From: an uncultured Clostridia bacterium
GTDB lineage: Bacteria > Bacillota > Clostridia > Christensenellales > Aristaeellaceae
DNA: 64,000 nucleotides
Direction of reading: 5' to 3'
Assembly (NCBI GenBank): GCA_945928315.1
Contig: CAMENN010000001.1
Coordinates: 142 to 64,141, forward strand
Positions within the stretch are counted from its first letter, which is position 1; each line of letters begins with the position of its first letter. The notes under the pieces were generated by a model. It searched no databases. It worked only from the letters and a program-made list of their open reading frames with translations, and was not told where the DNA came from. The translations under genes and the position numbers were made by a program. Of the stretch, positions 3,619 through 21,374 are shown in pieces.

Positions 3619-3687
3619 CCGGGGCGCGCGCCGCGCTTCCCTTTTGGGTGCACCCGTGGTATACTGAGGGGCACGAGGAGGTGCCCT

Positions 3688-4284: not shown

Positions 4285-4314
4285 GCGCGAAGCGAGGAAG
4301 GGAGTCTGGGGGAC

Positions 4315-4408
4315 CGGAGCCCACCGCGCCCTGTGGGCGATGAAGGTGGGCGGAGCGTCGGAAATCGCAAGGAGTGCCGCTTGCGGCACGACTATGCGAG
4401 TTTCCCGG
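4315..4408 (+). repeat. M2 sub-element, copy a
   Basis: CGGAGCC...TTTCCCGG interrupts the GGGGAC/GTCCCC hairpin of beta. Confidence 0.8.
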
Positions 4409-4440
4409 ACTCTGATCCCCAGGCTAGGGGTTTGGGGGAC

Positions 4441-4527
4441 CGGAACCCGCCGCCGCCAGTGGCGGATGAAGGCGAGTGGAGCGTCGGAAACGGAAAGGAG
4501 CGCTTGCACGACTATTCCGTTTCCCGG
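4441..4527 (+). repeat. M2 sub-element, copy b
   Basis: CGGAACC...TTTCCCGG interrupts the GGGGGAT-GAA-ATCCCCC hairpin. Confidence 0.8.
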
Positions 4528-4697
4528 TCTGAAATCCCCCAACGTTCCTATATCGCGAAGCGATCAAAGAAAAAAGTAGTCAGGGAGCGAAGCGTTACCT
4601 GACGGGGCTTAGCGCATAGCTGTAAAAACAGCCTCACCGCTTCGCACCCCTGTCGCGATTTTCCATGCAGGGCTGCGGCTATCATATTCATACGCAA

Positions 4698-4742
4698 AGG
4701 AAGGGCCAGGGGAGCGATATTCCCCGACCCTTCCTGTTTTTG
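4698..4742. terminator. Bidirectional intrinsic terminator between the convergent HAD and glgA genes
   Basis: AGGAAGGGCC...GACCCTTCCT stem followed by GTTTTTG. An A-rich run lies on the other side. Confidence 0.75.
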
Positions 4743-4761
4743 TATATTGATCGAATGCGCG

Positions 4762-6585
4762 TCACTTTCCCGGCGACAGCAGGTGCCGGATCTCAAAGCC
4801 CTTCGAGAGGTTGCCGCTCAGCTTGATCTGCCCGCTCAGGTAGAGCTTGTCCGTCGTCACGATGCCGCGGGCCATGTCCAGCAGGTTGTCAAACGAGCAG
4901 TCGATGAACGCCTCGGCCTGCGGGTGCGCCGTCGGCCGCACATACATGTTGCCGTCCGCAAACTCCACGTGCATCACGCCCTCCGTGCGCCCGTAGACGT
5001 GGATCTGGAAGATGCGGTGGAAGTCCTTGCGGTTGCGCTTGGCGTAGCGCGCCTTGTTGATGCGGTCGTTCTCCTCGTAGCAGTGGCGCAGCTGCTCAAA
5101 GGCGTCCTCGAACGGCACCTCGCCCGTGGCGACCATCTTGTTGCCGTCGGTGATGTCGTCGTACATTTCCTCGTAGGCGCGCGCGCTCTTGTCCCAGGAG
5201 AAGTCCTTCGTCATGCAGCGGTAGCGCAGGGTGTCGAACATCTGCTCGTTGCTGAAGTAGAGCTTGACCGCCTCGGAGACCGCCAGATACAGGTCCTTCG
5301 CCTGATAGTTGGAGAACGCGAAGCCGTCGCCCACGCCGTCGAAGTCCTTGTAGGCGCGCACGGAGTCCTTGAGGCCGCCCGTCTCATGCACGATGGGCAC
5401 GGTACCGTAGCGCATCGCCATCATCTGGGACAGGCCGCAGGGTTCAAAGCGCGAGGGCATCAGGTACATGTCCGCGCCGGCGAAGATCTTGCTGGCCATC
5501 GGCTCGTTGTAGGCGCTGGAGAAGCCCAGCTGTCCCGGCCAGTTTTCCTTCGCCCAGTTGAAATAATCGATGTATTGCTGGTCGCCCTGGCCAAAGACGA
5601 TGAGCTGCACGCCCATGTCCATGAGGCCCGGGAGAATCTGCTTGATCAGCTCGATGCCCTTCTGCTCGACCAGGCGCGCCACGGAGGCCAGCAGCGGCCA
5701 TTCCGGCTCATCGGAGAGGCCGAAGATCTTCTGGATCTCGCGCTTGCACAGCACCTTGCCGCTGCGGTCGTCCGGCGTGAAGTGATACGGGATCATCGGG
5801 TCATGCGAGGGGTCGTAGTGATCGACGTCGATGCCGTTGAGGATGCCGTAGAGCTTGCCGTCCACGATGTCGACGACGCCCTGCAGGCCGTGCGCGTAGT
5901 AGGGATAGTGCAATTCGCGCGCGTAGGTCGGGGAGACGGTGGAAACGGCGTCGGCCATGAGCATGGCGCCCTTCATGAGGTTGATGTCGTGGCGGCCCTG
6001 ATACTCATAGCCCAGACCGCCGTCGTACCAGCCCTCGGGCAGGGCGAAGACGTCCTTCATCTCGGACTTGCCGAACTGGCCCTGATAGGCGATGTTGTGG
6101 ATGGTATAGACGGTCTTGATGGGCTTGAGCTCGTCGCGCAGAACCATGTCGTTCTTGAGGTAGATGATGGCGAGGGCGGTCTCCCAGTCGTTGCAGTGGA
6201 GGATCTGCGGCATGAAGTCGAGGTCGCCGAGCAGGTCGATGACGGCGCGGCAGAAGAACGCGAAGCGCAGCGAGTCATCGCCATAGCCATACAGGCGCGG
6301 GCGATGGAAAAAGTGCTCATTCTCGACGAACCAGACGGTGACGCCGTTCAGCTCGCCGCGAAAGAGGGCGCAGGGCATGACGCGCTGCCCGAGGCGCACC
6401 TGGCACTCCTTGACCTTCGTGAGCGTATCGCCGTAGCTTTCGCGGGTGCACTGATAGAGCGGCACGATGGTGGCGATCTCATCGCCGGCCTTTTTGAGTG
6501 CCGGCGGCAGGGAGAAGGCGACGTCCGCCAGGCCGCCGGACTTGCTGAAGGGTGCGCATTCGCTGGTCACAAACAGGATTTTCAT
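4762..6585 (-). CDS. glgA: Glycogen/starch synthase (GT5) with C-terminal SCP2-like extension
   Basis: MKILFVTSECAPFSKSGGLADV carries the KSGGL motif. Start set at ATG 6585 (RBS AAGGGG); the track ORF extends 25 codons further upstream. The last ~125 aa (...LYLSGQIKLSGNLSKGFEI...) look SCP2-like. Confidence 0.9.
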   Translation of the reverse strand: MKILFVTSECAPFSKSGGLADVAFSLPPALKKAGDEIATIVPLYQCTRESYGDTLTKVKECQVRLGQRVMPCALFRGELNGVTVWFVENEHFFHRPRLYGYGDDSLRFAFFCRAVIDLLGDLDFMPQILHCNDWETALAIIYLKNDMVLRDELKPIKTVYTIHNIAYQGQFGKSEMKDVFALPEGWYDGGLGYEYQGRHDINLMKGAMLMADAVSTVSPTYARELHYPYYAHGLQGVVDIVDGKLYGILNGIDVDHYDPSHDPMIPYHFTPDDRSGKVLCKREIQKIFGLSDEPEWPLLASVARLVEQKGIELIKQILPGLMDMGVQLIVFGQGDQQYIDYFNWAKENWPGQLGFSSAYNEPMASKIFAGADMYLMPSRFEPCGLSQMMAMRYGTVPIVHETGGLKDSVRAYKDFDGVGDGFAFSNYQAKDLYLAVSEAVKLYFSNEQMFDTLRYRCMTKDFSWDKSARAYEEMYDDITDGNKMVATGEVPFEDAFEQLRHCYEENDRINKARYAKRNRKDFHRIFQIHVYGRTEGVMHVEFADGNMYVRPTAHPQAEAFIDCSFDNLLDMARGIVTTDKLYLSGQIKLSGNLSKGFEIRHLLSPGK

Positions 6586-6682
6586 CGGGATAGCCCCTTT
6601 CATGAAAATGATATGCATCTGTGTGGATATGACGAGGGGCTGACGCGCCGGTTCGCGCATCAGCCGGGTTTGCTATGATTCA

Positions 6683-6883
6683 CCGTCAGGTAACGCTTCG
6701 CTCCCTGACTGCTTTCTTTTTTGGATCGCTTCGCGATGGGGTACGTTGGGGGCCTTGTCCGGGGAACTCGCATAGTCGCGACGCAAGCGTCGCTCCTTGC
6801 GATTCCCGACGCTCCTCCCACCTTCATTGCCCACAGGGCGCGGTGGGCTCCGGTCCCCCAGACCCCTTCTTCGCTTCGCGCGG
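6683..6883 (-). repeat. Composite hairpin repeat R2 (reverse complement: alpha - M2 - short beta - gamma)
   Basis: Reverse complement of 6683-6883 is colinear with R1. M2 copy c is at 6759-6853. Confidence 0.9.
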
Positions 6884-6929
6884 TTTAAGGGGTTTTAATT
6901 CCATAACCCTCTCCCCCGCATGAAGCCGA

Positions 6930-7280
6930 TCACCGCGTTGGCCGCGCAGGCACAGCCGCCGGTCTCGCGCGGATGAGCGTCGAGATATTGAAATCGTCCT
7001 TGCCCTCGAAGACCTCGTAGACGTCGAGGTGCCACACGCCATGCTTCTTCGTAAAGCGCTCGGCAATCCTGCGCGCGGCGGCGCGGGCGGGATGGGCGTC
7101 CGTGTATTCCGGCCAGAACCGGCAGATGGAGAACGTCTCGCATGGGGCGAAGCTGGTAAAGACCATGATGAGCGGCAGCTCGTCCGTCAGGATCACCTCC
7201 GGCGCGAACGATTCGATGACGGGCAGAATGCCGTCGATCACGCCGTCGGCCGCGCCCACGGGGATATAAACGGCTTTCAT
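6930..7280 (-). CDS. Hypothetical protein (116 aa)
   Basis: ATG preceded by AAGGAGAG. No motif recognised. Followed by repeat R2. Confidence 0.55.
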   Translation of the reverse strand: MKAVYIPVGAADGVIDGILPVIESFAPEVILTDELPLIMVFTSFAPCETFSICRFWPEYTDAHPARAAARRIAERFTKKHGVWHLDVYEVFEGKDDFNISTLIRARPAAVPARPTR

Positions 7281-7437
7281 CGGTTCTCTCTCCTTTTCCC
7301 CGGAGCTTACTGGTTACATTTTACAGAACAAATGTCGTGAAGTCAACAATTTCACCAATCCACGGGAAAACTTTTTCACCAAAGCCGCCCAAGGCCGCGT
7401 CCGTGTCCAACTCTCCCCGTTTCCACCCTCTTTGTGC

Positions 7438-7466
7438 TTGACTTGCGCCGCGCGGCACACTATAAT
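7438..7466 (+). promoter_or_regulatory. Sigma-A-type promoter of the FbpABC-like operon
   Basis: TTGACT, 17 nt, TATAAT. Confidence 0.7.
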
Positions 7467-7574
7467 AAGCATAGATTTTACGTTGTTTTAACAAATTCGC
7501 CGGATTCATGCAGTCATTATGGAGGCAGTCGGGCCTTCATAACATAAAAACATCAAACTCAGGAGGGAAAACAC

Positions 7575-8750
7575 ATGAAACGGATTCTGTCCCTGGTGCT
7601 CGCTCTGGCTCTGCTGCTGAGCGTGTGCGCAATCGCCTCTGCGGAGACCGTCGGGGAGGCGCTCGCCGCCGCCGCGAAGATGACCAACGAGGAGCTCTAT
7701 GAGAAGGCCAAGGAGGAAGCCGCTGCCGGCGCGCAGCTCAACTTCTACTCCACGACCTCCTTTGCCGAGAAGGCCGCGGCCAACTTCATGAACGACTATC
7801 CGGAGCTGGCGGGCAAGGTCGTCTACGCCGAGATTGACGACGTGGAAACCTACACCATCCTGACCAACACGATCGGCTCGGGCGTCAAGGACTCCGCCGA
7901 CATGGCGCTGACCCAGAACGGCCCGGACCTCAAGACCTATCTGCTCGACGAGGGCCTGACCCTGACCTACTTCCCGGACGCGCTGAAGGATGTCGTCTCC
8001 GAGGCGGAGCAGGAGCCGGCGGTCGTGACCTACGTCAACTCGCTGTTCATCTATCACAACGGCGAGGGCTCCGTCAACTTCACGAACGTCTGGGAGCTGA
8101 CCGAGCCGCAGTGGAAGGACCGCATCTTCTTCAAGGACCCGACCAACGAGACGGTCAACATCAACTTCCTGATCATGCTGACGAGCGAAAAGTGGAACGC
8201 GCGCCTGGAAGCGGCGTATGAGAGCTACTACGGCAAGGCATGGGAAGCGGGCGAGTTTGACTCTGCGGCGCTGCAGTGGATCGACGGGTTCCTGGCGAAC
8301 GTGAACTACACCTATACCTCCGCCTCCAAGATGGCGGCGGGCATCGCCTCCGGCGCGCCGGGCAACATGGGCCTGTTCGTCTTCTCCAAGCTGCGCAAGG
8401 TCGATGAGGCCGACCGCGGCAACCTGACCGTCGTGCAGTTCGAGAACGAGGTCGAGGGCTTCTCCGGCTTCATGTATCCGATCTACGCCACCGTCTGCAA
8501 GGACACCGAGTGCCCCTACACCTGCGCGCTGTTCATCAACTATCTGCTCAGCGAGGAGGGCTTTGCCGGCCCGAAGAGCTGGAACTCCAGCCAGGGCTAC
8601 TACTCCCCGAACAAGACCATCGCCAAGCCCGAGGACATCGAGGACGAGCCGTACGAGTACTGGATCGAGCGTCTGGTGACCGAGGATCTTGACTACATCT
8701 ACGATCACTACATCGACGTGTACGAGTTCATCGCGACCCGCGTGGGCTAA
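7575..8750 (+). CDS. ABC transporter substrate-binding lipoprotein (Fe3+/polyamine/thiamine-type family 1)
   Basis: Signal/lipobox MKRILSLVLALALLLSVCAIASA. 391 aa. Upstream of a fused double permease and an ATPase. Confidence 0.8.
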   Translation: MKRILSLVLALALLLSVCAIASAETVGEALAAAAKMTNEELYEKAKEEAAAGAQLNFYSTTSFAEKAAANFMNDYPELAGKVVYAEIDDVETYTILTNTIGSGVKDSADMALTQNGPDLKTYLLDEGLTLTYFPDALKDVVSEAEQEPAVVTYVNSLFIYHNGEGSVNFTNVWELTEPQWKDRIFFKDPTNETVNINFLIMLTSEKWNARLEAAYESYYGKAWEAGEFDSAALQWIDGFLANVNYTYTSASKMAAGIASGAPGNMGLFVFSKLRKVDEADRGNLTVVQFENEVEGFSGFMYPIYATVCKDTECPYTCALFINYLLSEEGFAGPKSWNSSQGYYSPNKTIAKPEDIEDEPYEYWIERLVTEDLDYIYDHYIDVYEFIATRVG

Positions 8751-8781
8751 AGTGCTTGCGGCAACCATGACATGAAATAAT

Positions 8782-8976
8782 ATGAAGAGGCTGTCGGGCC
8801 AAGAATCCAGACATTCCAAGCAAAAACTAAGAGGGTTTGCGCCCGAAGGTTTCCAAAGGGCGATCGGAAAGCCCTTTGGCGGGGCGTTGGGGCAGAGCCC
8901 CAAGCTCGAAAAAGCCTGTTATTCTTAGAAAAGCTGCTTTATGGAATGTTCAGAATCAGCCTGACAGCCTCTTCAT
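8782..8976. repeat. ~195-nt palindromic element between the SBP and permease genes
   Basis: ATGAAGAGGCTGTC (8782-8795) is the perfect inverse complement of 8963-8976. Internal hairpins at 8853-8879 and 8887-8903. Confidence 0.8.
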
Positions 8977-9017
8977 GGATATGGTGGCAGGCTGCATGAA
9001 CGGCTTTGCACATCAGC

Positions 9018-9177
9018 CCCGTCTCAATCGTAGACCGCTTCGCGGTCTGCTCTGAGACTACGTTTTCTTATGGTGTTTTGGGACTGCCGTCCCAAACCCT
9101 GCCAAGGGGCGTTGCCCCTTGATCCCACCAGGGACATTGTCCCTGGACCCTTCTTCGCTTCGCGCTGCTTGAAGCAG
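9018..9177 (-). repeat. Delta-type hairpin-train repeat R3
   Basis: GTCTCA-[AGACCGC-TTC-GCGGTCT]-TGAGAC head, then TTTGGGAC-TGCC-GTCCCAAA, AAGGGGC-GTT-GCCCCTT and CCAGGGA-CATTG-TCCCTGG, then CCCTTCTTCGCTTCGCGC (alpha reverse complement). Confidence 0.85.
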
Positions 9178-9223
9178 TTTTGCAATTCTTTAACCCCACT
9201 TCCAAAGTCAAAGGCGGGAATCT

Positions 9224-11050
9224 ATGAAACGCAATCATCCCGATGACCTCACCCGCGAGCCGCTCGTCTACCGGCTGCGCGCCTTCGTGTGCAAGCCCGC
9301 TAACCTGCTGCTCGTCTTCTTCCTCTGCGTGCTCGTCGTGCTCTCCCTCTTCCCGATGGTCACCATGCTCAGCAACATGTTCACCATCCACCTGGGCACC
9401 GAGAAAAAAATCACGCGCCTGCCCACCGGCTCCTGGACCCTCATCCACTTTCAGAACCTCTTCAAGGGCAATGAGTGGAGCCGCGTCAATTTCTGGGACC
9501 CGCTGCGCAACTCGTTCATCGTCGCCTTCGGCGCGGGCCTGCTCGGCATCGCCATCGGCGGCACCGTCGCCTGGTTTGTGACGCGCTCGGACCTCAAATG
9601 CAAGAAGTTCATCTCCTCCGTGTTCGTCTTCCCCTACATGATGCCCGCCTGGACGCTCGCCCTCTTCTGGACCAACATGTTCCAGAACAGCAGGGTCGGC
9701 GGCGGCAACATCGGCATGGTGGAGTCCATCTTCGGCATCTGCATGCCGGAGTGGTTCGTCTACGGCCTGTTCCCGATGGTCGTGGTCATCGGCCTGCACT
9801 ACTCGCCGTTCGCGTATCTGCTCATCGGCGGCATCCTCAAAAACATGGACGCCACGCTCGAGGAGAGCGCCACCATCCTCAAGGCCAACCGCGCCACGAT
9901 CATCCGCCGCGTGACGATCCCCATCGTCATGCCGGCCATCCTCTCGACCTTCCTGCTGATCTTCTCCTCCGGCTTCAGCTCCTACACCGTGCCGGTGTTC
10001 CTGGGCTCGGCGGTCAAGTGCTACACCCTCTCCACCAAGATGCGCGCGCTCATTCAGGCGGGCTATCAGGGGCAGGGCTACATCATCGCGTTCATCTCCA
10101 TCCTGCTGGGCTGCATCATCCTGGGTATCAACCAGTGGTTCACCGGCAAGCGCAAGTCCTTCACCACCGTGACGGGCAAGAGCGGCCAGGTCTCGCTGGT
10201 GAAGCTCGGGCGCGCCAACTGGCCCATCACCATCGTGCTGATCGTGTTCATCCTGTTCGTGGCGATCATGCCGCTGATCAGCTTCGCGCTGGAGAGCGTC
10301 ATCCGCCAGCCGGGCAATTACAGCCTCTCCAACATGACGCTCCACTTCTGGATCGGCACGGAGGACTCCGCCTATGAGACGGGCATGATCGCGGGCATCC
10401 TGCTCAACACGACGATGTGGAACGCGCTCGGCCGTCAGGTGCTGCTGGCGCTGACGGTGGCGCTCATTGTGGGCACCAGCGGCATGCTCATCGGCTATGC
10501 CTGCGTGCGCCGCCGCGGCTCGAAGCTGGCCCGCCTCGTGGAGAGCCTCGCGTTCTTCCCGTACCTCATGCCCGCGATGGCCTTCGGCACGATCTACCTC
10601 GCCGTGGCCACGGGCGATCAGTTCAAGTTCCTCTACGGCACCTTCGGCCTTCTGGTCATCGTGGCCTCGGTCAAGTTCCTGCCGTTCGCCTCGCGCTCGG
10701 GCGTCAACAGCATGCTGCAAATCGCCCCGGAGATCGAGGAGGCCGCCATCATCTTCGGCGTGCCCTGGCGCAAGCGCATGACGCGTATCCTCTTCCCCAT
10801 CCAGAAGAGCAGCATCCTCTCGGGCTACCTGCTGCCGGTCATCTCCGTGATGCGCGAGGTGGCGCTCTTCACGCTGCTGGTGCCCTACGCCCGCTACCTG
10901 CTGACCACGATGCTCTTCTCCTTCAACGAGACGGGCTATGCCCAGTACGGCAGCGCGGTCACGCTGCTGATCATCCTGATCATCATGCTCATCAACGCCA
11001 TCACCAACAAGCTGACGGGCGCATCGTTCGACAAAGGAATCGGAGGCTGA
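9224..11050 (+). CDS. ABC transporter permease, fused two-domain (FbpB/ThiP-like)
   Basis: 608 aa with about 12 hydrophobic segments and two repeated permease halves. Confidence 0.85.
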   Translation: MKRNHPDDLTREPLVYRLRAFVCKPANLLLVFFLCVLVVLSLFPMVTMLSNMFTIHLGTEKKITRLPTGSWTLIHFQNLFKGNEWSRVNFWDPLRNSFIVAFGAGLLGIAIGGTVAWFVTRSDLKCKKFISSVFVFPYMMPAWTLALFWTNMFQNSRVGGGNIGMVESIFGICMPEWFVYGLFPMVVVIGLHYSPFAYLLIGGILKNMDATLEESATILKANRATIIRRVTIPIVMPAILSTFLLIFSSGFSSYTVPVFLGSAVKCYTLSTKMRALIQAGYQGQGYIIAFISILLGCIILGINQWFTGKRKSFTTVTGKSGQVSLVKLGRANWPITIVLIVFILFVAIMPLISFALESVIRQPGNYSLSNMTLHFWIGTEDSAYETGMIAGILLNTTMWNALGRQVLLALTVALIVGTSGMLIGYACVRRRGSKLARLVESLAFFPYLMPAMAFGTIYLAVATGDQFKFLYGTFGLLVIVASVKFLPFASRSGVNSMLQIAPEIEEAAIIFGVPWRKRMTRILFPIQKSSILSGYLLPVISVMREVALFTLLVPYARYLLTTMLFSFNETGYAQYGSAVTLLIILIIMLINAITNKLTGASFDKGIGG

Positions 11051-11054
11051 CACC

Positions 11055-12167
11055 ATGCCGGAAATCATCCTGGAAAATGTGACGAAGAAATTTGAAAAGT
11101 TCGTGGCGGTGGACAATCTCTGCCTGCACATCGCCGACCGCGGCTTTGTGACGCTGCTGGGCCCCTCCGGCTGCGGCAAGACGACCACGCTGCGCATGAT
11201 CGCGGGTCTGGAGACGCCGACCAGCGGCCGGATTCTGATCGACGGCAAGCCGGTCTTCGACTCGAAGAAGGGCGTGAACGTCCCGCCGAACAAGCGCGAC
11301 ATCGGCTTCCTGTTCCAGAACTACGCGCTCTGGCCGCACATGACGGTGTATGAGAACATCGCCTTCGGCCTGGAGATGCTCAAGTGGGACAAGGCGAAGA
11401 TCCGAAAGCGCGTGGATGAGCTGCTCGCGCTGCTGAAGATCGAGCAGTTTGAGAAGCGATACCCCTCGGAGCTTTCCGGCGGCCAGCAGCAGCGCGTGGC
11501 CATCGCGCGCACGCTGGCGCCCAGCCCGAAGGTGCTCTTCATGGACGAGCCGCTCTCCAACCTCGACGCGAAGCTGCGTCAGGAGATGCGCGCAGAGCTC
11601 AAGCGCCTGCATTCGGACACCAACTCCACGTTCGTCTACGTCACGCACGACCAGCTCGAGGCGATGACGCTTTCCACGCAGGTCTGCCTGATGAACACGG
11701 GCCTTCTGCAGCAGTACGCTCCGCCGCTGACGATCTACAACGCCCCGGCGAACCTGTTCGTGGCGGAGTTCGTGGGCAACCCGACGATGAACTTCATCCC
11801 GGCGAGGGTGGTGAGCGCGGACAGCTGCGTGGTGACGCTCGACGTGCTGGGCAAGCGCGCGGTCTTCAGCGCGCAGGCGCCGGTGACGGGTCTTTCTCAG
11901 GAGGCGGTGCTCGGCGTGCGGCCGGAGTTCCTGCCGCTGACGGACGACGGGCCGATCGAGGGGCGCGTCTACTCGACGCTGCCCACGGGCATGGAGACGA
12001 CGCTGCGGGTGGCCTGCGGCGGCGCGATGCTCACCAGCGTGGTGTTTGGCAGCGTCGATTACCCGGTGGATACGCCGGTGCGCCTGTCGATGACCGGCAG
12101 CCGGCTCGTGCTCTTTGACAAGGCCAGCGGGAAGAGCGTCGGCGTGGGCAGCGTAGAAATGGCTTAA
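11055..12167 (+). CDS. ABC transporter ATP-binding protein (PotA/FbpC/MalK-like)
   Basis: Walker A GPSGCGKTT, signature LSGGQQQRV, Walker B LFMDEP. C-terminal regulatory/TOBE-like domain. Confidence 0.92.
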   Translation: MPEIILENVTKKFEKFVAVDNLCLHIADRGFVTLLGPSGCGKTTTLRMIAGLETPTSGRILIDGKPVFDSKKGVNVPPNKRDIGFLFQNYALWPHMTVYENIAFGLEMLKWDKAKIRKRVDELLALLKIEQFEKRYPSELSGGQQQRVAIARTLAPSPKVLFMDEPLSNLDAKLRQEMRAELKRLHSDTNSTFVYVTHDQLEAMTLSTQVCLMNTGLLQQYAPPLTIYNAPANLFVAEFVGNPTMNFIPARVVSADSCVVTLDVLGKRAVFSAQAPVTGLSQEAVLGVRPEFLPLTDDGPIEGRVYSTLPTGMETTLRVACGGAMLTSVVFGSVDYPVDTPVRLSMTGSRLVLFDKASGKSVGVGSVEMA

Positions 12168-12169
12168 AA

Positions 12170-12306
12170 CCGCGCGAAGCGAGGAAGGGGGTCTGGGGAC
12201 TGGTCCCCAGGCTAGGGGTTTGGGGGATGAAATCCCCCAACGTCCCCCCTATCGCGAAGCGATCCAAAAAGAAAGCAGTCAGGGAGCGAAGCGGGACCTG
12301 ACGGGG
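12170..12306 (+). repeat. Composite hairpin repeat R4 (alpha - beta - gamma, no insertion; archetype)
   Basis: Nearly identical by eye to 36514-36643. Confidence 0.92.
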
Positions 12307-12343
12307 ACTCCCCGCAGACCCCCGCTCCATCCGCTGAACACAC

Positions 12344-12380
12344 AGGCCGCCGCGAAGCATGCACTTCGCGGCGGCCTTTT
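12344..12380 (+). terminator. Intrinsic terminator of the FbpABC-like operon
   Basis: AGGCCGCCGCGAAG-CATGCA-CTTCGCGGCGGCCT plus TTT. Confidence 0.85.
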
Positions 12381-12551
12381 CATGCCATATAGGGAATTGC
12401 GTCAAAGCGTCGTACGGCGAGCACCGGGAGACAGTACTTGACCAAGCTGTTCGGAAGTGGGGGGTGGGCACGGCCCGCTTTGCCCGTTTTCGTCTCTTCT
12501 GCTCAAAGATTCCCTTAAAAATACTGTGACTTTTTCCAAGAACTTTTCCTC

Positions 12552-12580
12552 TTCCACTCCATACGCGCATCGGCTACAAT
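12552..12580 (+). promoter_or_regulatory. Candidate promoter reading into R5 and the GNAT operon
   Basis: TTCCAC, 17 nt, TACAAT, in an AT-rich patch. Confidence 0.45.
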
Positions 12581-12604
12581 ATAATTAGTATTTTGTCACC
12601 CTTC

Positions 12605-12894
12605 ATACTATTCTCACTCAATTCGAACCTTCAGAAAACTCCCCGTCAGGTAACGCTTCGCTCCCTGACTACTTTTCTTGGATCGCTTCGCGTTAATGGA
12701 TACGTTGGGGGATTTCATCCCCCAACCCCCTAGCCTGGGACCGAAGCCTGCCGCCGCCAGTGGCGGATGAAGGCAGGCGGAGCGTCGGAAATCGCAAGGA
12801 GTGCCGTTCACGGCACGACTATGCGAGTTTCCCGGGGTCCCCGGACCCCTTTCTCGCTTCGCGCCCATAGCTCGTCTTTATGTGAGAATAGTAT
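12605..12894 (-). repeat. Composite hairpin repeat R5 with 13-bp flanking inverted repeats
   Basis: Gamma, beta and alpha are reverse-complemented (12641-12866), while M2 copy d (12741-12835) is on the + strand. ATACTATTCTCAC (12605-12617) is the inverse of GTGAGAATAGTAT (12882-12894). Confidence 0.88.
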
Positions 12895-12919
12895 CACCGC
12901 GTCAAGGAGGTATGCCCCT

Positions 12920-13972
12920 ATGAATATCCGCACCCTGGAGCCCCGCGACATCCCCGCCGCCGTCTTCCTGTGGAACGCCAGCGTCCGCGACGGCGAGGTC
13001 GTCTACGCCGACATCACCCCCGCCTACTTCCATCAGAAGTTCGAGCTCGACCCCAACTATGACCCGGAATTCTCGCTGGTCGCCGAGGAGGACGGCGAGG
13101 TCGTCGGCTTCATCAACGGCATCGCCAAAAAGGTCTTCCTCGACCGCGAGACGAACGAAAACTCCCCCGGCTATATCACCTGCTTCTTCGTGCGCCGGGA
13201 CCGCCGCGGCCGCGGCACGGGCCGCGCGCTCGTGGACGCCCTCTGCGCCCGGTTCGCCGCGCACGGCAAGCGCACCGTCGCCGTCTCCAACGACAACCCC
13301 GTCAACCTCGACTGGCGCATCCCCGGCACGCCCGGCCATGACCACAACAACACCCCCGGCGTCGATACCGAATGCCCCGGCTATGGCTTCCTGCAGGCCC
13401 TCGGCTTTGGTGAGCGCGTCCGCGAAATCGCCATGTACCTGAACCTCGCCGAATACACCCCGTGGGAGGGCCTCAAAGAAAAGCAGGCCGAGTTGCTCTC
13501 GCAGGGCATCTACACCGGGCGCTATGACCCCAGCCTCGGCTATGACTACGACCTGATGTGCGACCACGTCGGCAGCGAATACTGGCGCGCCGTCATCCGC
13601 TCGGAGCTGGCCTGCTGGAAGGAAAACCGCCCCAATACCGATGTGCGCTTCATCCCCAACGGCACCAAGGTGCCCGCCGGGCCGCGGCCCATGCTCGTGG
13701 CCACCAGCGGCGAGCGCATCGTCGCCTTCACCGGCCCCGTTGACAAGCAGGACAGCGGACGCGGCTGGTTCTGCGGCATCATGACCGATCCGGAGTTTGA
13801 GCGCCGCGGCATCGCCTCCGTGCTCTTCAACCTGCTGATGCAGGAGTTCGTCGCCGAGGGCGCCGCGTTCAGCACGCTCTTCACCGGCGACAGCAACCAC
13901 GCCCAGCGCATCTACAAGCGCGCAGGCTTTGACGTCGTGCGGCGCTTCGCGCTCATGGGTAAATCCCTCTGA
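12920..13972 (+). CDS. GNAT-family N-acetyltransferase, two-domain
   Basis: Start moved to ATG 12920 (RBS AAGGAGG at 12904-12910); the track ORF start at 12767 lies inside repeat R5. Contains RRGRGTGRAL and ERRGIASVLF acetyl-CoA-binding-type motifs. Confidence 0.8.
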   Translation: MNIRTLEPRDIPAAVFLWNASVRDGEVVYADITPAYFHQKFELDPNYDPEFSLVAEEDGEVVGFINGIAKKVFLDRETNENSPGYITCFFVRRDRRGRGTGRALVDALCARFAAHGKRTVAVSNDNPVNLDWRIPGTPGHDHNNTPGVDTECPGYGFLQALGFGERVREIAMYLNLAEYTPWEGLKEKQAELLSQGIYTGRYDPSLGYDYDLMCDHVGSEYWRAVIRSELACWKENRPNTDVRFIPNGTKVPAGPRPMLVATSGERIVAFTGPVDKQDSGRGWFCGIMTDPEFERRGIASVLFNLLMQEFVAEGAAFSTLFTGDSNHAQRIYKRAGFDVVRRFALMGKSL

Positions 13973-13996
13973 CCGCCCGCGCAAAGGAGCATCGCC

Positions 13997-16192
13997 ATGT
14001 ATACCTCCCGGCTGCACGCCACCAACGGCGTGGTCACCCTCGACTTTGACGCCCTGAGCGGCGAGCTGCTCGCCTTCGTGCGCGAGAGCACCGCCGACAA
14101 CCTGCTCAAGAACTACGCCACGCGCGCCCATTCCCCGCTGGACGGCATGCTGCTTTGCGACGGCGCGCCCCGGCGCTTCCATGCGCCGCGCTACGCCGAC
14201 ATCCGGCTGCATCCGGAGCTCCGCCCCGCCATCACCGTCCGGCAGGAGGCGCGCGAGGCCAGCGTCACCCTGCGCTATCCCGCGCTCGTCGCGGACGGGG
14301 AGCCGCTCGCGCTCAGCGCGGAGGTCACCGTCGCCCTGCCGGAGGGCGACTGCCGCACCCTCTGGACGCTGACGCTCGACAACCGCACCGGCTGCGAGGT
14401 GGACGACGTCGCCTTCCCCGCCATCGACGGCGCATGGCTGGGCGAATTCTGGCAGGACGACGTGCTCGTCTATCCGCACTTCGCCGGATGCCGCGTCGAT
14501 AACCCGACCGAGCAGCTGGCCTCCGCACCGGAGCTGATTCACTGGAAGTGGCAGGAGTACATCTACTGCTACAACGTCGGGCAGGAGACCGGCACGCGGG
14601 ACGAGCGCGGCGCGTACGTCCGCCGCCTCAACTACTCCGGCGAGGCCTCGATGATGTGGATGGACCTGTACGATCCCGCCGAGGGCACGGGCCTGTACAT
14701 CGCCTGCCGCGACGAGACGATGGCGATGAAGTCACTGCGCATGGAGTCCTTCGGCCGCGGCGACCCGGGCTGCGGGCTGGCGATCCTGCACCGGCCTGCG
14801 CTGGGCGAGGGCACCTGGACGAGCGCCCCCTGTGTGCTCGCCTTCCACGAGGGCGACTGGCACTGGGCCGCCGACGACTACCGCGCGTGGTTTGCGTCGC
14901 TTCACCGCCCATCCCATGCCCGCCCGGCGTGGTTCGAGATGAGTCCCGGCCTCATGGCCCACTACGACTTCCAGTATCAGGGCGGCGGCATCGTCCACCG
15001 CTATGCCGACATCCCGGAGCTGATGAAAAAGGCGCAGGAAATGGGCATCAATCACCTGCTGCTCTCCGGCTGGAACATGGACGGCTTTGACTTCGGTTTC
15101 CCGCACTACACGCCCAACCCGAATCTGGGCACCGAGCAGGAGCTGCGCGACGCGATCGCGGCGTGCCGGCGCATGGGTGGGCACGTCAGCTTCTACATCA
15201 ACGCCCGCCTGTGCAACACAGGCTTCGCCGACCAGCAGCAGTGCATTGCCGAGGGCGCGGTCATGCAGCGGGATGGCAAGCTGTGGATTGAGAAGTACGG
15301 CGCGGACGACCTGTCCTTCGCCTCCATGTGCATCGGCGACAGGCGTTGGCGGGACTTCCTGGCGGACACCGTGCGCTATCTCACCCACGACATCGGCGCA
15401 GACAGCATGTACCTCGACCAGTTCGCCATGAGCACGTCGGTCAAGTGCTATCACCCGGAGCACGAGCACACGGGCAATCCCTGCGCCTGGAACCAAGGCT
15501 ATGAGCGCCTGCTCGACCAGCTGGAGCCGGACTACGCCCCGGAGGGCCTGGCGCTGCTCTACGAGGGCTGCAACGATGCCTTCGGCCCGCGCGCCAGCGG
15601 CCAGCTCGTCTCCGAGCTGCACTGCCCGTTCCGCGGCCGCATGCCGGAGGTCTACAAGTACACCTTTCCCGACCAGATCCTCATGGACATGATGAACCCG
15701 CGCCGCCGCTCGGCGATGCGTCCGGAGCACATCGCCCGCCACTCCACGGAGCTGCTGCACAACGCGTTCACCATGGGCGCGTACCTGTGGTGCTACGACC
15801 TCGAGGAGGACAACTGCTGGCGCGGCGACGACGAGGCGATGGCGCGGCTGACGGGCATCCTCGCGCTGCGGCGCGCGTGGCTGGAGCGCTACGGGCAGGG
15901 CCGCTTCACCGACACCGTCGGCCTCAAGGACATCCCGAAGGGCTGCCAGGTGCGGCGCTTCGCGCTTGAGGACGGCCTGCTGCTGGCCTGCGCCGGCGAG
16001 AAGGGGCTGCACGGCGCCGTGCTCGCGCGCTGGGACGGCAGGGGAAAGCCGCGCTGTGAGGCCATGACCCAGCAGTGGCCCACGCCCATGCCGTATCCCT
16101 GCCTGCTGAGCGAGATGGACGGCGTCACCTGGGCGGAGGTTCCGCTGCCGCAGGACGAGACGGCCGTCATCGCGCTGCGGGAGGCGGACTGA
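13997..16192 (+). CDS. GH-like TIM-barrel protein of unknown function (DUF6259-like), paralogue of 34426-36483
   Basis: 731 aa. The central segment INHLLLSGWNMDGFDFGFPHYTPNPNLGTEQELRDAIAACRRMGGHVSFYIN ... GADSMYLDQFA is typical of glycoside-hydrolase-like barrels. The family name is from memory. Confidence 0.6.
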   Translation: MYTSRLHATNGVVTLDFDALSGELLAFVRESTADNLLKNYATRAHSPLDGMLLCDGAPRRFHAPRYADIRLHPELRPAITVRQEAREASVTLRYPALVADGEPLALSAEVTVALPEGDCRTLWTLTLDNRTGCEVDDVAFPAIDGAWLGEFWQDDVLVYPHFAGCRVDNPTEQLASAPELIHWKWQEYIYCYNVGQETGTRDERGAYVRRLNYSGEASMMWMDLYDPAEGTGLYIACRDETMAMKSLRMESFGRGDPGCGLAILHRPALGEGTWTSAPCVLAFHEGDWHWAADDYRAWFASLHRPSHARPAWFEMSPGLMAHYDFQYQGGGIVHRYADIPELMKKAQEMGINHLLLSGWNMDGFDFGFPHYTPNPNLGTEQELRDAIAACRRMGGHVSFYINARLCNTGFADQQQCIAEGAVMQRDGKLWIEKYGADDLSFASMCIGDRRWRDFLADTVRYLTHDIGADSMYLDQFAMSTSVKCYHPEHEHTGNPCAWNQGYERLLDQLEPDYAPEGLALLYEGCNDAFGPRASGQLVSELHCPFRGRMPEVYKYTFPDQILMDMMNPRRRSAMRPEHIARHSTELLHNAFTMGAYLWCYDLEEDNCWRGDDEAMARLTGILALRRAWLERYGQGRFTDTVGLKDIPKGCQVRRFALEDGLLLACAGEKGLHGAVLARWDGRGKPRCEAMTQQWPTPMPYPCLLSEMDGVTWAEVPLPQDETAVIALREAD

Positions 16193-16252
16193 CGCAGCTT
16201 TCCCGCCTGTCTGCGCCCTGAGCACGCCCATCCCCGAAAGGAGCCTGTTTCC

Positions 16253-16765
16253 ATGCACACCGCCCTCGACGTCTGCGCCCTGTCCTCGCGCTACGCCGTC
16301 CGCCCGCTTCTGCGCCCGGATGCGCCGGCCGTTCTCGCCCTGTGCGAGGGCAACCCACTCTTTTACCGCTATCATCCGCCGTTTGTGACGCTGCAAAGCA
16401 TCTACGACGACATGGACGCGCTGCCGCCGGGCCGGACGGTTGCGAACAAGCATTACGTCGGCTTCTGGTCGGGCGGGGAGCTCGTCGCCGTGCTGGATCT
16501 CGTGGAGGACTATCCGCGCGAGGACACCGCGATGCTGGGCTTTTTCATGATGGACGCCCGGCATCAGGGCAGGGGCGAGGGCTCGGCGATCATCGGTGGG
16601 TGCATGGCCTGCCTGCGGGATGCGGGGTTTGCCTGCGTCCGCCTGGGCATCGACCGGGACAACCCGCAGAGCCGCGCCTTCTGGACGAAAAACGGCTTTG
16701 TGCTGACCGGTGAGGAAGTGCCCAACGACTTCTCCTCCTATCTGATGATGGAACGGAATCTGTGA
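16253..16765 (+). CDS. GNAT-family N-acetyltransferase
   Basis: 170 aa with a QGRGEGSAII motif. Confidence 0.8.
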   Translation: MHTALDVCALSSRYAVRPLLRPDAPAVLALCEGNPLFYRYHPPFVTLQSIYDDMDALPPGRTVANKHYVGFWSGGELVAVLDLVEDYPREDTAMLGFFMMDARHQGRGEGSAIIGGCMACLRDAGFACVRLGIDRDNPQSRAFWTKNGFVLTGEEVPNDFSSYLMMERNL

Positions 16766-16775
16766 AGTAACATAC

Positions 16776-16811
16776 GCGGAGCGCGCAGCCATCGCTGCGC
16801 GCTCCGCTTTG
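16776..16811. terminator. Bidirectional terminator between convergent operons
   Basis: GCGGAGCGCGCAGC-CATC-GCTGCGCGCTCCGC plus TTTG. Confidence 0.75.
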
Positions 16812-16823
16812 ATCTTCCCCTTC

Positions 16824-18008
16824 TCAATCGTACAGGTGATACTTTGCCTTTTTCTTTTCATAGGCCGCGCGAGCGGGCGCGTACTTGTCCACGATCTGCT
16901 GCGCGGTGAGTCCGCCCGCCGTGAAGTCGTCCGTCGCCAGCAGCTTGTCGAGGTACCGCGTGAACACCGGCCCGGAGGGCAGCTGCGCAACCTCGTGGCC
17001 CGCCGAGCAGTCCGCATAGGCGATCTGCTCCGGATACATCTCCCGGATCGTCTCCAGCAGCGTCATCGCCGTCAGGAACGGGCGGAATTCCCGCCGGTCC
17101 GCGATCAGCGTCTGCACGCCGGAGCAGACTTGCCCCGCGTGCTTGGAGCTGACGGGCTTGAAGTACACGTCCGCAAAGCGCACGCCCGGCAGCCCCTTCG
17201 CGTCCATCTTTTCGCGCAGGGCCGCCCCGTCGATCCACGGCGCGCCGACCAGCTCGAACGGCTTGCTCGTGCCGCGCCCCTCGCTCACGGAGGAGACGCC
17301 CTCAAAGATGCAGTAGCCCGCGTAGAGCAGGTTCGCCGTCAGGCCGTTCAGGCTCGGGGAGGGCAGCAGCCACGGCACGTCCGTCTCGTCGTAGTAGAGA
17401 TTGCGCGACCAGCCCGCCACGGGGATCACCGTCAGCGCGCAGCCGACGCCGTACTCGCCGTTCACATAGCGCGCGAACTCGCCGATGGTCAGCGCCGTGC
17501 GCGAGGGCAGCTCAAAGTCGCCGACGATGGTGTGCATGTCCGGCGGGCAGACCGTGCCCTCGACAATCTCGCCGCCCAGCGGGGCGATGCGGTCGAGCAC
17601 GATGACCTCCCTGCCGCACGACGCGCAGGCGCGCATGATCGCCGCCAGGCAGTGCAGGTACTCGAAAAAGCGCGTGCCGGCCTCGCGGATGTCGAAGACC
17701 ACGGCGTCCACGTCCGAAAGCATCTCCGGCGACGGCGCGATGCGCTCGCGGCTAAAGATGCTCTCCACGGTCAGGCCCGTGCGCGCGTCCACATAGGACG
17801 GCACGCGCTCGCCGTACATGAACTCGCCGCGGATGCCGTAGATCGTGTTGAAGAGCCGGCGTACGTCGTAGCGGTCGCAGAGCACGTCGGCGACATGGCG
17901 CAGGTTCCGGTCAACCGCCGCGCCGCCGGTGACGACGGCCAGCCGCTTGCCCGAAAGGGCCTTGTCCATCAGATCGATGCGGTCGATGCCGCTCAGCACA
18001 GGTTTCAT
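16824..18008 (-). CDS. DUF1343 / NamZ-like exo-beta-N-acetylmuramidase family protein
   Basis: 394 aa. N-terminus ...LSGKRLAVVTGGAAVDRN... and overall similarity to 24238-25386. Matches the DUF1343 (B. subtilis NamZ/YbbC) architecture. Confidence 0.75.
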   Translation of the reverse strand: MKPVLSGIDRIDLMDKALSGKRLAVVTGGAAVDRNLRHVADVLCDRYDVRRLFNTIYGIRGEFMYGERVPSYVDARTGLTVESIFSRERIAPSPEMLSDVDAVVFDIREAGTRFFEYLHCLAAIMRACASCGREVIVLDRIAPLGGEIVEGTVCPPDMHTIVGDFELPSRTALTIGEFARYVNGEYGVGCALTVIPVAGWSRNLYYDETDVPWLLPSPSLNGLTANLLYAGYCIFEGVSSVSEGRGTSKPFELVGAPWIDGAALREKMDAKGLPGVRFADVYFKPVSSKHAGQVCSGVQTLIADRREFRPFLTAMTLLETIREMYPEQIAYADCSAGHEVAQLPSGPVFTRYLDKLLATDDFTAGGLTAQQIVDKYAPARAAYEKKKAKYHLYD

Positions 18009-18032
18009 GGCGTTCCCCTTTCAAATCAAATG

Positions 18033-18157
18033 AGCTTTCAGAAAATTCCCCGCCAGAGCTCGCTTCACGATAGGGGGGCGCTGGGCTGCCGCCCAGACCT
18101 GCCTGGGGACATTGTCCCCAGCCCCCTTCTTCGCTTCGCGCTGCGTAAAGCAATTAG
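18033..18157 (-). repeat. Delta-type repeat R6 (shortened)
   Basis: TGGGCTGCCGCCCA, CTGGGGACATTGTCCCCAG, CCCCCTTCTTCGCTTCGCGCTGCGTAAAGCA. Lies between the PMI-like stop and the NamZ-like start. Confidence 0.8.
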
Positions 18158-18169
18158 GCAGGAGTCCGG

Positions 18170-19972
18170 TTACCGCTTCAGCTGCGTCTTGTGCACCGTC
18201 ACGGAGCCGATGCCCAGGTTCTCGATGGTGTAGCGCCCCAGCGTCGCCGGGATGACCACGATGTCGAGGCTGTTCATCACGAACGACTTCTCCGGGTCCT
18301 CCACGGAGGAGACGCGCACGCGCTCGCCGTCCACCAGCGCGAGGACGTGGAACTGGCCGTCCGTGTCGTCCTCGATGCGGTCCCAGAAGCGGAGGTTGCG
18401 CAGCGAGAAGTAGAGCAGGTCGTGCTCGCCGACGATGCGCTCCTCCCAGGGGTTGCCCTGCGCGTCGGTGCCCGAGCGCACCACGCCGCCGTGGTTGACG
18501 AGGTTCTGCTCGACCCACTCGTGCGTGCGCTCACCGTGGATGACCTGGCTGCCCATCTTGAGGTGAATCGGGCGCGGCAGGCCGGTCTGCGGGTCGATGC
18601 GCTGATAGTCGTAGAGCTTGTAGGTGTAGGAGCCGACCGTCAGGCTGCCGATCTCCAGAATGACCTGATTGCGGCCGGAGGCGTGCACCGTTCCCGCCGG
18701 GATCATCACCTGCGTGCCCGGCACGGAGGGCACCGCGTTGATGTACTTCTCGTAGTCGATCTTCTCATGCGTCTTTTCGGCGCGGCGGGCCTCGTCGAAG
18801 AACGCCTCGCAGCTCGTCTCATCCCTGAAGCCCAGGTACGTTTTCGCGCCCTGCGCCGTCACGCAGACGTAGTAGCTCTCGTCCTGACGGCCCAGCTCGC
18901 CGTGATTGCCCACCACATAGTCCGCGTCCGGATGGCACTGCACGGACATGTTGCCGTTGGAATGATAGGTGTCGTCGTAGTTGAAGCGCACCGGGAAGTA
19001 GCCGCCGAACTGCTCATACGCCTGCTGGCCCAGCAGCGTCGGGCCCATCGCCTGCACGAACGTGAAGAACGGCGCCTCGAACTCGTTGCCGTCCATCTTC
19101 GCGACGATGGAAACCTCCATCGGGATCATGTCGAACACCCACGCGCAGTTGCGCATCTCCTTCGGCAGATGGCGCAGCTTGTGGACGTAGAAGCCGCCCC
19201 ACACGCCCTCCAGATACACCGGGCGACAGCGGAAGGGCCGCGCGCAGAGCGCGGAGAAGATCGCCGTGAGCTCCTCAAAGGTGACCATCTGCATGTCCTT
19301 CGGCTCGTCCGCGGTGATGTACAGGTCGAGCGCGCCGCTGCGGATGAGCTCCCAGCGCACGTCGATGGCGTTTTCAAAGTCCACATAGTAGTTGCGGCGC
19401 ATCATCAGGTTGTAGGGCAGGTCCTCGCCCGCGCCGAGGTTGCGCACGCGGCCGTACTTGAAGTTCAGCGCGGCCGTGCGCGGGGTGACGTCCATCCAGA
19501 CGCGCACGTCGACGCAGTCGCGCAGCTCCGGGCAGAGCGCGCCGCGGCCGATGACCAGCAGGCCGTGCTCCGCCGCCAGCCGCTCACGCAGCGCGGCAAC
19601 CTTCGCCGCGTCGTGCAATCCCGCATAGCCGTCCCGGTAGCGGCGGCCGTAGAGCAGCACCGGGTCGATGTCCCGGTCCTCGGGCAGGTAGGGGCGCAGC
19701 ATCTCGGTGAGCGTCTGCGGGGCCTTGGTCAGCGCCTCCGCGTCCACGACGTCATAGCGCACGCCCGCGCCCACCTGATGCAGCACATTGAGCAGCGCGG
19801 CGGTATCCGCGCCGGGGTACGCGTCGATGCCGACGTTTTTGCCCTCCGCGAGCAGCGCGGCGATGCGTTTGGCCACGGCGATGACGCCGCGCACCGGGGA
19901 AACGCCGGGAACGGAAACCTCGTTCACCGCGTCGTGATCGACGTACGGGTAGGGATGAAACATAAAGCTCAT
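18170..19972 (-). CDS. Class I mannose-6-phosphate-isomerase-like cupin protein with ~250-aa N-terminal extension
   Basis: 600 aa. Contains the SVQCHPD metal-binding motif and IPAGTVHASG in the C-terminal half. Confidence 0.65.
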   Translation of the reverse strand: MSFMFHPYPYVDHDAVNEVSVPGVSPVRGVIAVAKRIAALLAEGKNVGIDAYPGADTAALLNVLHQVGAGVRYDVVDAEALTKAPQTLTEMLRPYLPEDRDIDPVLLYGRRYRDGYAGLHDAAKVAALRERLAAEHGLLVIGRGALCPELRDCVDVRVWMDVTPRTAALNFKYGRVRNLGAGEDLPYNLMMRRNYYVDFENAIDVRWELIRSGALDLYITADEPKDMQMVTFEELTAIFSALCARPFRCRPVYLEGVWGGFYVHKLRHLPKEMRNCAWVFDMIPMEVSIVAKMDGNEFEAPFFTFVQAMGPTLLGQQAYEQFGGYFPVRFNYDDTYHSNGNMSVQCHPDADYVVGNHGELGRQDESYYVCVTAQGAKTYLGFRDETSCEAFFDEARRAEKTHEKIDYEKYINAVPSVPGTQVMIPAGTVHASGRNQVILEIGSLTVGSYTYKLYDYQRIDPQTGLPRPIHLKMGSQVIHGERTHEWVEQNLVNHGGVVRSGTDAQGNPWEERIVGEHDLLYFSLRNLRFWDRIEDDTDGQFHVLALVDGERVRVSSVEDPEKSFVMNSLDIVVIPATLGRYTIENLGIGSVTVHKTQLKR

Positions 19973-19978
19973 GGTGAA

Positions 19979-21360: not shown

Positions 21361-21374
21361 GGTATCCTCCGTAT

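Follow-up and report, generated by a model that had tools for sequence, protein, structure and literature searches.

The 64,000-nucleotide stretch of DNA analysed here, referred to as the window, carries ten copies of a modular, GC-rich hairpin repeat. They belong to a dispersed family of uncultured gut Clostridia that has apparently not been described so far. In our estimation there is about an even chance that these repeats form a co-transcribed family of the Correia, BOX and REP kind, which arrived in a MITE-like manner, keeps its core for a role in the transcript and carries a secondary element, here called I, that targets hairpin loops. The original prediction, made from the letters of the window, had named REP/BIME, BOX and Correia elements as analogues of a dispersed modular family, and the present analysis supports this reading overall. 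Something new is most likely to lie in the I element and in the spacing of the repeats from stop codons.

The prediction had also taken the repeats to be spread beyond the window and to match no named family, and on both points it held up. A pattern consisting of alpha, the conserved first module, and the start of the following hairpin H1 was scanned against the GTDB species representatives. It matched at least 108 stretches, distributed over at least 27 MAG species; among the matches listed, a single MAG had as many as 13 loci. The MAGs among these listed matches were labelled Clostridia, Clostridiales, Christensenellales, Oscillospiraceae and Candidatus Ventricola, and their host sources were sheep, deer, buffalo, rabbit and the human gut. 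A covariance model of the core (alpha-H1-H2) found 152 copies in 766 kb, including five within the window, and real copies were also present on five IMG/VR contigs and in JGI metagenomes. Rfam yielded no hits for the window at the gathering threshold and only chance-level matches at E<10 (4250-4700). The PLSDB plasmids and INPHARED phages contained no match to the repeat family, and no description of it was found in exact-sequence and topical searches of the literature. A 2024 review of prokaryotic MITEs mentions neither Clostridia or Firmicutes nor nested elements (PMC10969869). The window contig recurs in independent ENA assemblies with 99.1-99.9% identity and no indels in the elements, and several ENA contigs end inside an element, as expected of a multi-copy repeat. 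The independent assemblies L004, L005 and L006 break at window positions 12179 (inside alpha), 12738 (at the edge of I) and 12206 (inside H1), respectively. Two contigs stood apart. In L012 a GC-rich core (4138-4209) lies near the end of an IMG/VR contig that otherwise has 32% G+C; either the assembly is chimeric or the core was transferred to a genome quite unlike its own. L081, a contig binned as Mucispirillum and hence in a different phylum, starts with alpha (1-32) and is probably a mis-binned Clostridia contig.

The modules at 12170-12306 read back exactly as predicted. This basic unit on the plus strand comprises alpha (12172-12190), the hairpins H1 (12191-12212) and H2 (12222-12238), the motif ACGT, the hairpin H3 (12251-12263) and the outer hairpin gamma (12278-12302); the covariance-model match spans 12172-12248. 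The unit has a stop codon at 12165-12167 on one side and a terminator-like hairpin at about 12335-12375 on the other, and its left arm holds the last codon and the stop of the upstream gene. A copy at 36514-36643 had been described as almost base-for-base identical. The copy is genuine, and the wording was slightly too strong for a BLAST identity of 89.5% over 133 nt. It forms part of a complete 200-nt copy (36483-36682, plus strand), whose left terminus ATACTGATTTC overlaps the TGA stop codon at 36481-36483 and whose right terminus TTGAGAATAGTAT ends at 36682. The loci 4285-4607, 6683-6883 and 12641-12866 proved to be the 12170-12306 unit with insertions of about 95 nt, deletions or inversion, as proposed. 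The copy at 4285-4607 (plus strand) begins directly past a TAA stop codon (4282-4284) and contains alpha, the hairpins H1 and H2 with an I element interrupting each of the two, H3 (4551-4563) and a gamma hairpin (4579-4603). Both of its I elements are on the plus strand, one in the H1 loop (4312-4407; two domains, 95 nt, nhmmer E=3.7e-25) and one in the H2 loop (4438-4534). The copy at 6683-6883 (minus strand) consists of alpha (6864-6881), an I element (6760-6855), H3 (6724-6736) and gamma (6685-6709); most of the 3' arm of H1 together with H2 is gone, and the copy gave a match at 92% over 110 nt. The locus at 12641-12866 lies within a complete copy (12605-12894, minus strand) that is inverted with respect to the neighbouring genes and has both terminal inverted repeats (12605-12616 and 12873-12894). 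The I element in its H1 loop (12739-12834, plus strand) runs opposite to the host orientation and is identical in strain L140.

The loci that had been set apart as a related delta form have alpha (GCGCGAAGCGA) and other modules in common with the remaining copies, and each reads on the minus strand. The delta copy at 9018-9184 has a pre-alpha hairpin, alpha (9148-9165), three small hairpins and then the delta hairpin (GTCTCAGAGCAGACCGCGAAGCGGTCTACGATTGAGAC), whereas the short copy at 18033-18160 has alpha (18124-18141), H1, H2 and a degenerate H3/gamma and scored 72 bits with the covariance model. A further delta copy at 41241-41446 shows an ATACT-type terminus near 41243 and alpha at 41410-41427. 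At 56945-57027 lies an internally deleted copy, in which alpha is joined to the 3' half of gamma via the common GCGAAGCG repeat (GCGCGAAGCGAAGCGTTACCTGA), and at 63935-64000 the outer end of a delta-type copy is cut by the window end. BLAST with the 12170-12306 unit gave alpha-end matches at 9148-9165, 18114-18141, 41403-41430 and 57001-57015.

The GCGCGAAGCGA motif is invariant across all ten of these loci and occurs together with ordered GC-rich hairpins. Copy-to-copy BLAST E-values ranged from 1e-14 to 1e-42, and folding z-scores of the copies against dinucleotide shuffles from -3.9 to -9.5, with -3.9 and -4.0 for the two strands of 4285-4610 and -5.4 for 36484-36687. The similarity and folding of the copies are thus far beyond chance. 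The heptamer GCGAAGC, which a passage from Hirao's group describes as an extraordinarily stable DNA mini-hairpin (PMC13037366), was counted 49 times in the window against 28.8 expected, with about three per repeat unit. By the gene calls of this analysis all ten copies are located between genes, and a Pfam search detected no transposase or integrase domain in the window, both in line with the prediction. It had missed the terminal inverted repeats of the 12605-12894 copy and of the 36483-36682 copy (36483-36513/36661-36682), the nature of the insertions as a distinct nested element, the origin of the copy at 57000 as a deletion derivative, and the rules of orientation and stop-codon placement.

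Complete copies are about 200 nt long and closed, like MITEs, by terminal inverted repeats of about 28 bp, which were found by aligning 19 element copies with a gamma hairpin. The left end reads ATACTATTCTCAAATAGAAACGAGC(C/T)ATAA and the right end ...TTATTTGAGAATAGTAT, and paired termini are 150-290 nt apart. Two complete copies are present in the window (36483-36682 and, inverted, 12605-12894). A pair of copies from one MAG agree as far as ...GCAGAACAGTA / ...GAACAGTA and are unrelated past that point, which indicates that the terminus is a true boundary of the repeat. In a complete copy from elsewhere, the terminal stem encloses four internal hairpins (z = -9.45). All termini read TA-CT...AG-TA, which fits a TA duplication and also a TA that is part of the repeat; a clean pair of empty and filled sites was not found in close relatives. 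The internal order is fixed: alpha (GCGCGAAGCGAAGAAGGG), H1, H2, ACGT, H3 (ATCGCGAAGCGAT), one outer hairpin and a tail. H3 is a GCGAAGC mini-hairpin, and the outer position is taken by one of at least three alternative hairpins, gamma (GTCAGGGAGCGAAGCGTTACCTGAC), delta (GTTTCAGAGCAGGCTGCGAAGCAGCCTACGATTGAAAC) or E. Since the outer hairpins interchange, the predicted delta form is one and the same element carrying another outer module. GTAG or GCAG often stands ahead of gamma and delta hairpins, whereas H1 and H2 lack a GT(A/G)G head.

In 181 copies whose flanking sequence was long enough, the left terminus was detected in 36, gamma in 52, delta in 27, E in 16 and none of the three outer hairpins in 88, with a regular expression for the right terminus that has an appreciable chance rate. 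The copies without an outer hairpin, about half of the set, are short alpha-H1-H2 cores. Inverted termini occur in about one fifth of the copies and are missing from the short cores. Copy length varies from 70 to 330 nt, and there is no conserved reading frame. Head-to-head cores, or alpha-H1-alpha' as one long palindrome, were observed in L041 (3362-3522) and L103 (7419-7488), a REPIN-like arrangement that was rare in the sample.

The core is conserved as a structure. The covariance model was built from 23 gap-free copies with a hand-written structure, and its alignment replaced that of MAFFT and RNAalifold, which misaligned the core stems. In the core alignment 97.8% of the cells were paired, 17 of 19 pairs had changed on both sides and 0 of 500 shuffles was as good, while structures slid along the same alignment were 35-76% paired; these values are inflated, because the alignment was fitted to the structure and the copies share ancestry. 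The stem variants are plain in the raw sequences, with GTCTGAGGG/CCCTCAGGC, GTTTGGGG/CCCCAAGC, GTTCGGGG/CCCCGAGC and TGCAGGG/CCCTGCC as examples. On the alpha strand G·T pairs outnumbered A·C pairs by 156 to 16, and by 60 to about 15 when a conserved T·G at the base of H1 was left out. A crude hairpin finder counted 14 G·T against 9 A·C outside the conserved wobble, and the structural alignment is clearer. Neutral decay of a palindrome should produce G·T and A·C equally, so that the excess argues for pairing in one strand, either as RNA or as single-stranded DNA. At orthologous sites in L010 and L110, where the flanks are about 76% identical, alpha is identical and the hairpins are compensated; alpha and the hairpins behave likewise in L031 and L044. 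A small open reading frame starting from an ATG in the H1 loop behind the Shine-Dalgarno-like AAGGGAG was considered and rejected; the ATG is missing in many copies and is split by I.

For the placement of the cores, genes were called by codon-position G+C and checked against the gene calls of the ENA contig L001, which covers 2301-22167 of the window. Cores between genes of the same strand were co-oriented with them in 44 cases and antisense in 16, and the other gene-pair gaps with cores were convergent in 23 cases and divergent in 2. An independent metagenome set, fetched for another reason, gave 24 co-oriented against 10 antisense cores and 22 convergent against 0 divergent gaps. The pooled co-orientation of 68 against 26 corresponds to p of about 1e-5 in a normal approximation, a rough value because orthologous copies are not independent. 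With about 28% of the cores in tandem context being antisense, a role in the transcript would not apply to every copy. In most co-oriented cases alpha begins 14-31 nt past the stop codon, with a conserved pre-alpha sequence AAAGCnGCTTnAAACC between them, and in copies with a terminus the stop codon abuts or overlaps ATACT (e.g. 36481-36487). In the lineage of the window, genes before alpha end in TAA in 67% of cases compared to 30% elsewhere (p = 2e-7); no such difference was observed in the mixed MAG set. Three window copies are situated between a stop codon and a terminator-like hairpin, and many copies stand directly before the ribosome-binding site and start codon of the next gene in operons. 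The termini were also considered as -10 promoter boxes. The window site 3660-3690 keeps TGGTATACT where L118 has an element; a sigma-70 consensus scan of 12100-13000 revealed no promoter at the termini, and such a function is not supported.

The insertions of about 95 nt noted in the prediction (4312-4407, 4438-4534, 6760-6855 and 12739-12834) are copies of the separate two-domain element I. Searches with nhmmer revealed 42 copies in the window and the MAG loci and 111 in 367 kb of contigs from JGI, mostly of a single sample series. Its fold has 30 predicted pairs, of which 21 are compensated, with 97.8% of the cells paired, 0 of 500 shuffles as good and invariant tandem G·A pairs. I is always located 3' of GG, at or beside a hairpin loop and in either orientation. 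The occupied sites include the loops of H1 and H2, the GCGAAGC loop in alpha, a further module and, in nested cases, the inner hairpin of a second I copy. At one orthologous site the H1 loop lacks I in L077 and contains it in L104. The junction is ambiguous at the level of single bases, since the ends of I (GAC...GTC) are similar to the upper part of the H1 stem. The strand asymmetry of the core is absent from I (about 14 G·U against 13 A·C). In a test on 144 copies its orientation was unrelated to transcription (23 against 21); all four window copies are sense, and the larger set thus removed the notion that I is always sense to transcription. Nor is I always co-oriented with its host repeat, with 79 copies in the same and 36 in the opposite orientation, a preference that co-amplification could produce. 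Within contigs, all of them short, the orientations of I are mixed, which speaks, though not decisively, against a single orientation relative to replication. An identification of I as a small ribozyme was rejected, since its cores do not match hammerhead or twister and Rfam returned nothing, as was a K-turn in domain 2, where the tandem G·A pairs lack an adjacent 3-nt bulge. L098 contains a tandem array of a 205-nt unit (199-775, extending to about 1053; 88% matches). Each unit has an I-like inner hairpin with an I element inserted in it, and the unit also occurs in L178.

The predicted variation in module presence and absence is real, and the mechanisms behind it could be observed between copies and strains. 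Orthologous sites in different species, with flanks about 74-91% identical, differ in the presence of the element. Between two adjacent genes, L048 (empty) has 1-17 nt, whereas L031 and L044 (filled) have 350-440 nt made up of hairpin modules. Another orthologous gap measures 77 nt in L083 (empty) and 235 nt in L085 (filled), and a third 86 nt in the window (3598-3684; site 3618-3688) and 308 nt in L118. Strain L140, which shares 97% identity with the window, carries alleles of other copies in place of H1 and H2 in the 12172 copy, between nearly identical flanks; this is gene conversion. The two strains also differ by a loss of 30 nt between two CGCTTCGC direct repeats in the 12605-12894 copy, a type of deletion that explains the fusion of alpha and gamma at 57000. 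With a 7-nt indel relative to L140, an ABC-transporter gene of the window ends on a TAA inside the element. The copies have thus been shown to diversify by deletion between 8-bp GCGAAGCG direct repeats, by replacement of hairpins through gene conversion and by insertion of I. Within the species of the window the elements are static, with no indels over 20 kb among 99%-identical contigs. A 114-nt segment of the window past the terminator-like hairpin (12376-12489) is missing from L140 and has no similarity to the repeat family.

By sequence, the repeat is a member of none of the Correia, BOX, REP/BIME and REP-targeting insertion sequence families, although it resembles each of them in part. Correia elements (CREE/NEMIS) of Neisseria are likewise very numerous intergenic MITEs, about 100-200 bp long with inverted termini of about 26 bp. 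Their termini begin with a TA-containing, -10-like sequence, to which ATACT...AGTAT is the counterpart in the Clostridia repeat, and they have no known transposase. They are co-transcribed with their neighbours, their inverted termini pair in the RNA, and the expression of neighbours is affected (PMC10969869). The Clostridia repeat differs from them in lacking sequence similarity, in its Gram-positive anaerobic host and in an interior of fixed, GC-rich, covarying hairpins with interchangeable outer modules; most copies are without termini, and a promoter function of the ends is unsupported by the consensus scan. The BOX repeat of Streptococcus pneumoniae, known along with RUP and SPRITE, is also a modular Bacillota repeat with stable structures. 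BOX is composed of boxA-boxB-boxC modules, is transcribed and differs in module number between copies. The three pneumococcal repeats RUP, SPRITE and BOX have been described together (PMC3049150). The Clostridia modules have no sequence relationship to those of BOX, and the family further differs by the inverted termini of its complete copies, by a nested secondary element and by a placement tied to stop codons.

REP/BIME/REPIN systems share with the Clostridia repeat the dense GC-rich palindromes after genes, the stem compensation and the mosaics with other motifs. REPs are high-copy, GC-rich intergenic palindromes with compensatory changes that form mosaics with other motifs, and RAYTs have been described as confined to proteobacterial lineages (PMC2817692). 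The Clostridia core hairpins, however, have no GT(A/G)G head, the modules keep one order and orientation instead of alternating, no RAYT was found in the sequences searched and the lineage lies outside that of RAYTs. With its insertion in hairpin loops of a host repeat, I resembles IS1397, ISKpn1 and ISPpu9/ISPpu10, mobile DNA with repeated extragenic palindromes as its specific insertion sites (PMC1525189, PMC12288879). These insertion sequences are protein-coding and 1-2 kb long, whereas I is 95 nt, non-coding and self-nesting, with a conserved two-domain fold and more than 100 copies. A further likeness is to palindrome-associated IS200/IS605 derivatives, which are small and non-coding and have folded ends instead of long inverted repeats. 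Non-autonomous derivatives of IS200/IS605 insert 3' of a short motif, and I is always found 3' of GG. The two domains of I, however, are unlike each other and fill the whole element, and no Y1 transposase was found in a weak test. Integron attC sites and CRISPR were rejected on the lack of a cassette array and of repeat-spacer periodicity.

The family thus shows the inverted termini of MITEs and their short, non-coding, multi-copy nature with presence/absence variation, and no parent insertion sequence was found. About 1.2 Mb of loci and contigs were searched for a transposase with matching ends, with a negative result. In the searched loci no protein family was found repeatedly beside the elements and no gene was enclosed by paired termini, and a scan of viral sequences for the terminus returned only chance hits. 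A tblastn search of the same approximately 1.2 Mb with an IS200 TnpA query, a weak test, returned nothing.

For the reading with about even chances, we suppose that the repeats would insert as MITE-like DNA next to stop codons and would be co-transcribed with the upstream gene. The core may be kept because its stem-loops act in the transcript, as has been shown for REP, BOX and Correia; candidate roles are those of a 3'-end or intercistronic stabiliser, a processing site or an insulator. I, in this view, would be a non-autonomous DNA element in its own right, with hairpin loops as its targets and some enzyme acting in trans to move it. A point against the MITE-like part is that the short cores lack inverted termini, so that their spread is not accounted for. 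A bolder and rather unlikely version regards I as a new class of non-coding mobile DNA, which would find its targets by shape and not by sequence, inserting in a GC-rich hairpin loop after a G-run, would be moved by an enzyme so far unconnected with any repeat and would live as a parasite on another repeat, with the core as a separately functional RNA signal after the translation stop. It is likewise doubtful that the repeat and I are both purely selfish, non-autonomous transposons whose hairpins are kept for a transposase that recognizes folded single-stranded or cruciform ends. Placement after stops would then result from TA or AT-rich target choice, with which the TAA enrichment is compatible, and from purifying selection against insertions in genes and promoters, with which the strong avoidance of divergent gaps agrees. 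Such an origin would also suit the inverted termini and exact repeat boundaries, the gain and loss between species and the behaviour of I, which shows neither strand asymmetry nor a link to transcription. The core fits less well: target choice alone would not be expected to yield more G·T than A·C on one strand or a co-orientation of 68:26, alpha remains identical and the hairpins compensated at orthologous sites with flanks about 76% identical, and no activity was seen within the species of the window.

In a REP/REPIN-type system the hairpins would serve as recognition sites of a domesticated Y1 (RAYT-like) HUH transposase, present once per genome and copying via single-stranded DNA, with alpha, or the G(T/C)AG before the gamma and delta hairpins, in the role of the GTAG head. 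We consider this improbable. The copy number is high, the palindromes are GC-rich and intergenic with compensatory changes, and head-to-head pairs exist (L041, L103), but module order and orientation are fixed and do not alternate as in BIMEs. GTAG or GCAG precedes many gamma and delta hairpins, whereas H1 and H2 are without the head and classical inverted termini are present. The heptamer GCGAAGC is, in the passage cited above, a very stable mini-hairpin of single-stranded DNA (PMC13037366); against this stand the empty tblastn search of the loci with the IS200 TnpA query, itself a weak test, and the description of RAYTs as proteobacterial only (PMC2817692). Quite improbable is a non-mobile cis-regulatory RNA, with alpha-H1-H2 read just after translation ends and spread by duplication and recombination, in which the purine-rich AGAAGGGAG would pair, putatively, with the 3' end of 16S rRNA like Shine-Dalgarno-like stabilisers. 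Hundreds of copies beside unrelated genes, about one quarter of them antisense, and presence/absence between species are at odds with it, and true inverted termini with exact repeat boundaries indicate insertion. These weigh against the fixed distance from the stop codon, the sense bias, the strand-specific tolerance of wobble pairs, the many copies in operons that immediately precede a ribosome-binding site and start codon, and the invariance of alpha across species, all of which such an RNA would explain. A local duplication or an assembly artefact of the window contig has a negligible likelihood; metagenome contigs often end inside elements, but the same loci recur without indels in independent assemblies of other samples, and the family is present in at least 27 MAG species, several IMG/VR contigs and JGI metagenomes.

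The repeats take up a large share of the intergenic space in widespread uncultured gut Clostridia. If the density of ten loci in 64 kb holds, a genome would contain several hundred copies. They fragment metagenome (MAG) assemblies, can provide genes with stop codons and C-terminal residues, and lengthen the spacers of operons by 150-400 nt. MAGs that carry them would be better assembled and annotated if the repeats were named and modelled. With its fixed position after stops and its strand-specific pairing, the core is a candidate RNA signal of 3' UTRs or intercistronic regions in Bacillota, and one that can be tested directly. I is a compact and well-supported case of a structured, self-nesting element that targets hairpin loops, and its enzyme is worth finding.

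The window, which has 65% G+C and encodes spore-germination proteins, contains further repeats of a different nature. A 1284-aa BspA-type leucine-rich-repeat protein (36776-40630) is the source of internal direct repeats, which are ordinary coding repeats. A 90-nt direct repeat with 78% identity (30929-31018 and 34273-34362) ends in GCTATACTG; one site lies inside an open reading frame call (29560-34227, DUF5107) and the other just before the gene at 34378-36483 (DUF6259). This repeat has no relation to the hairpin family and resembles a promoter or leader that was duplicated.
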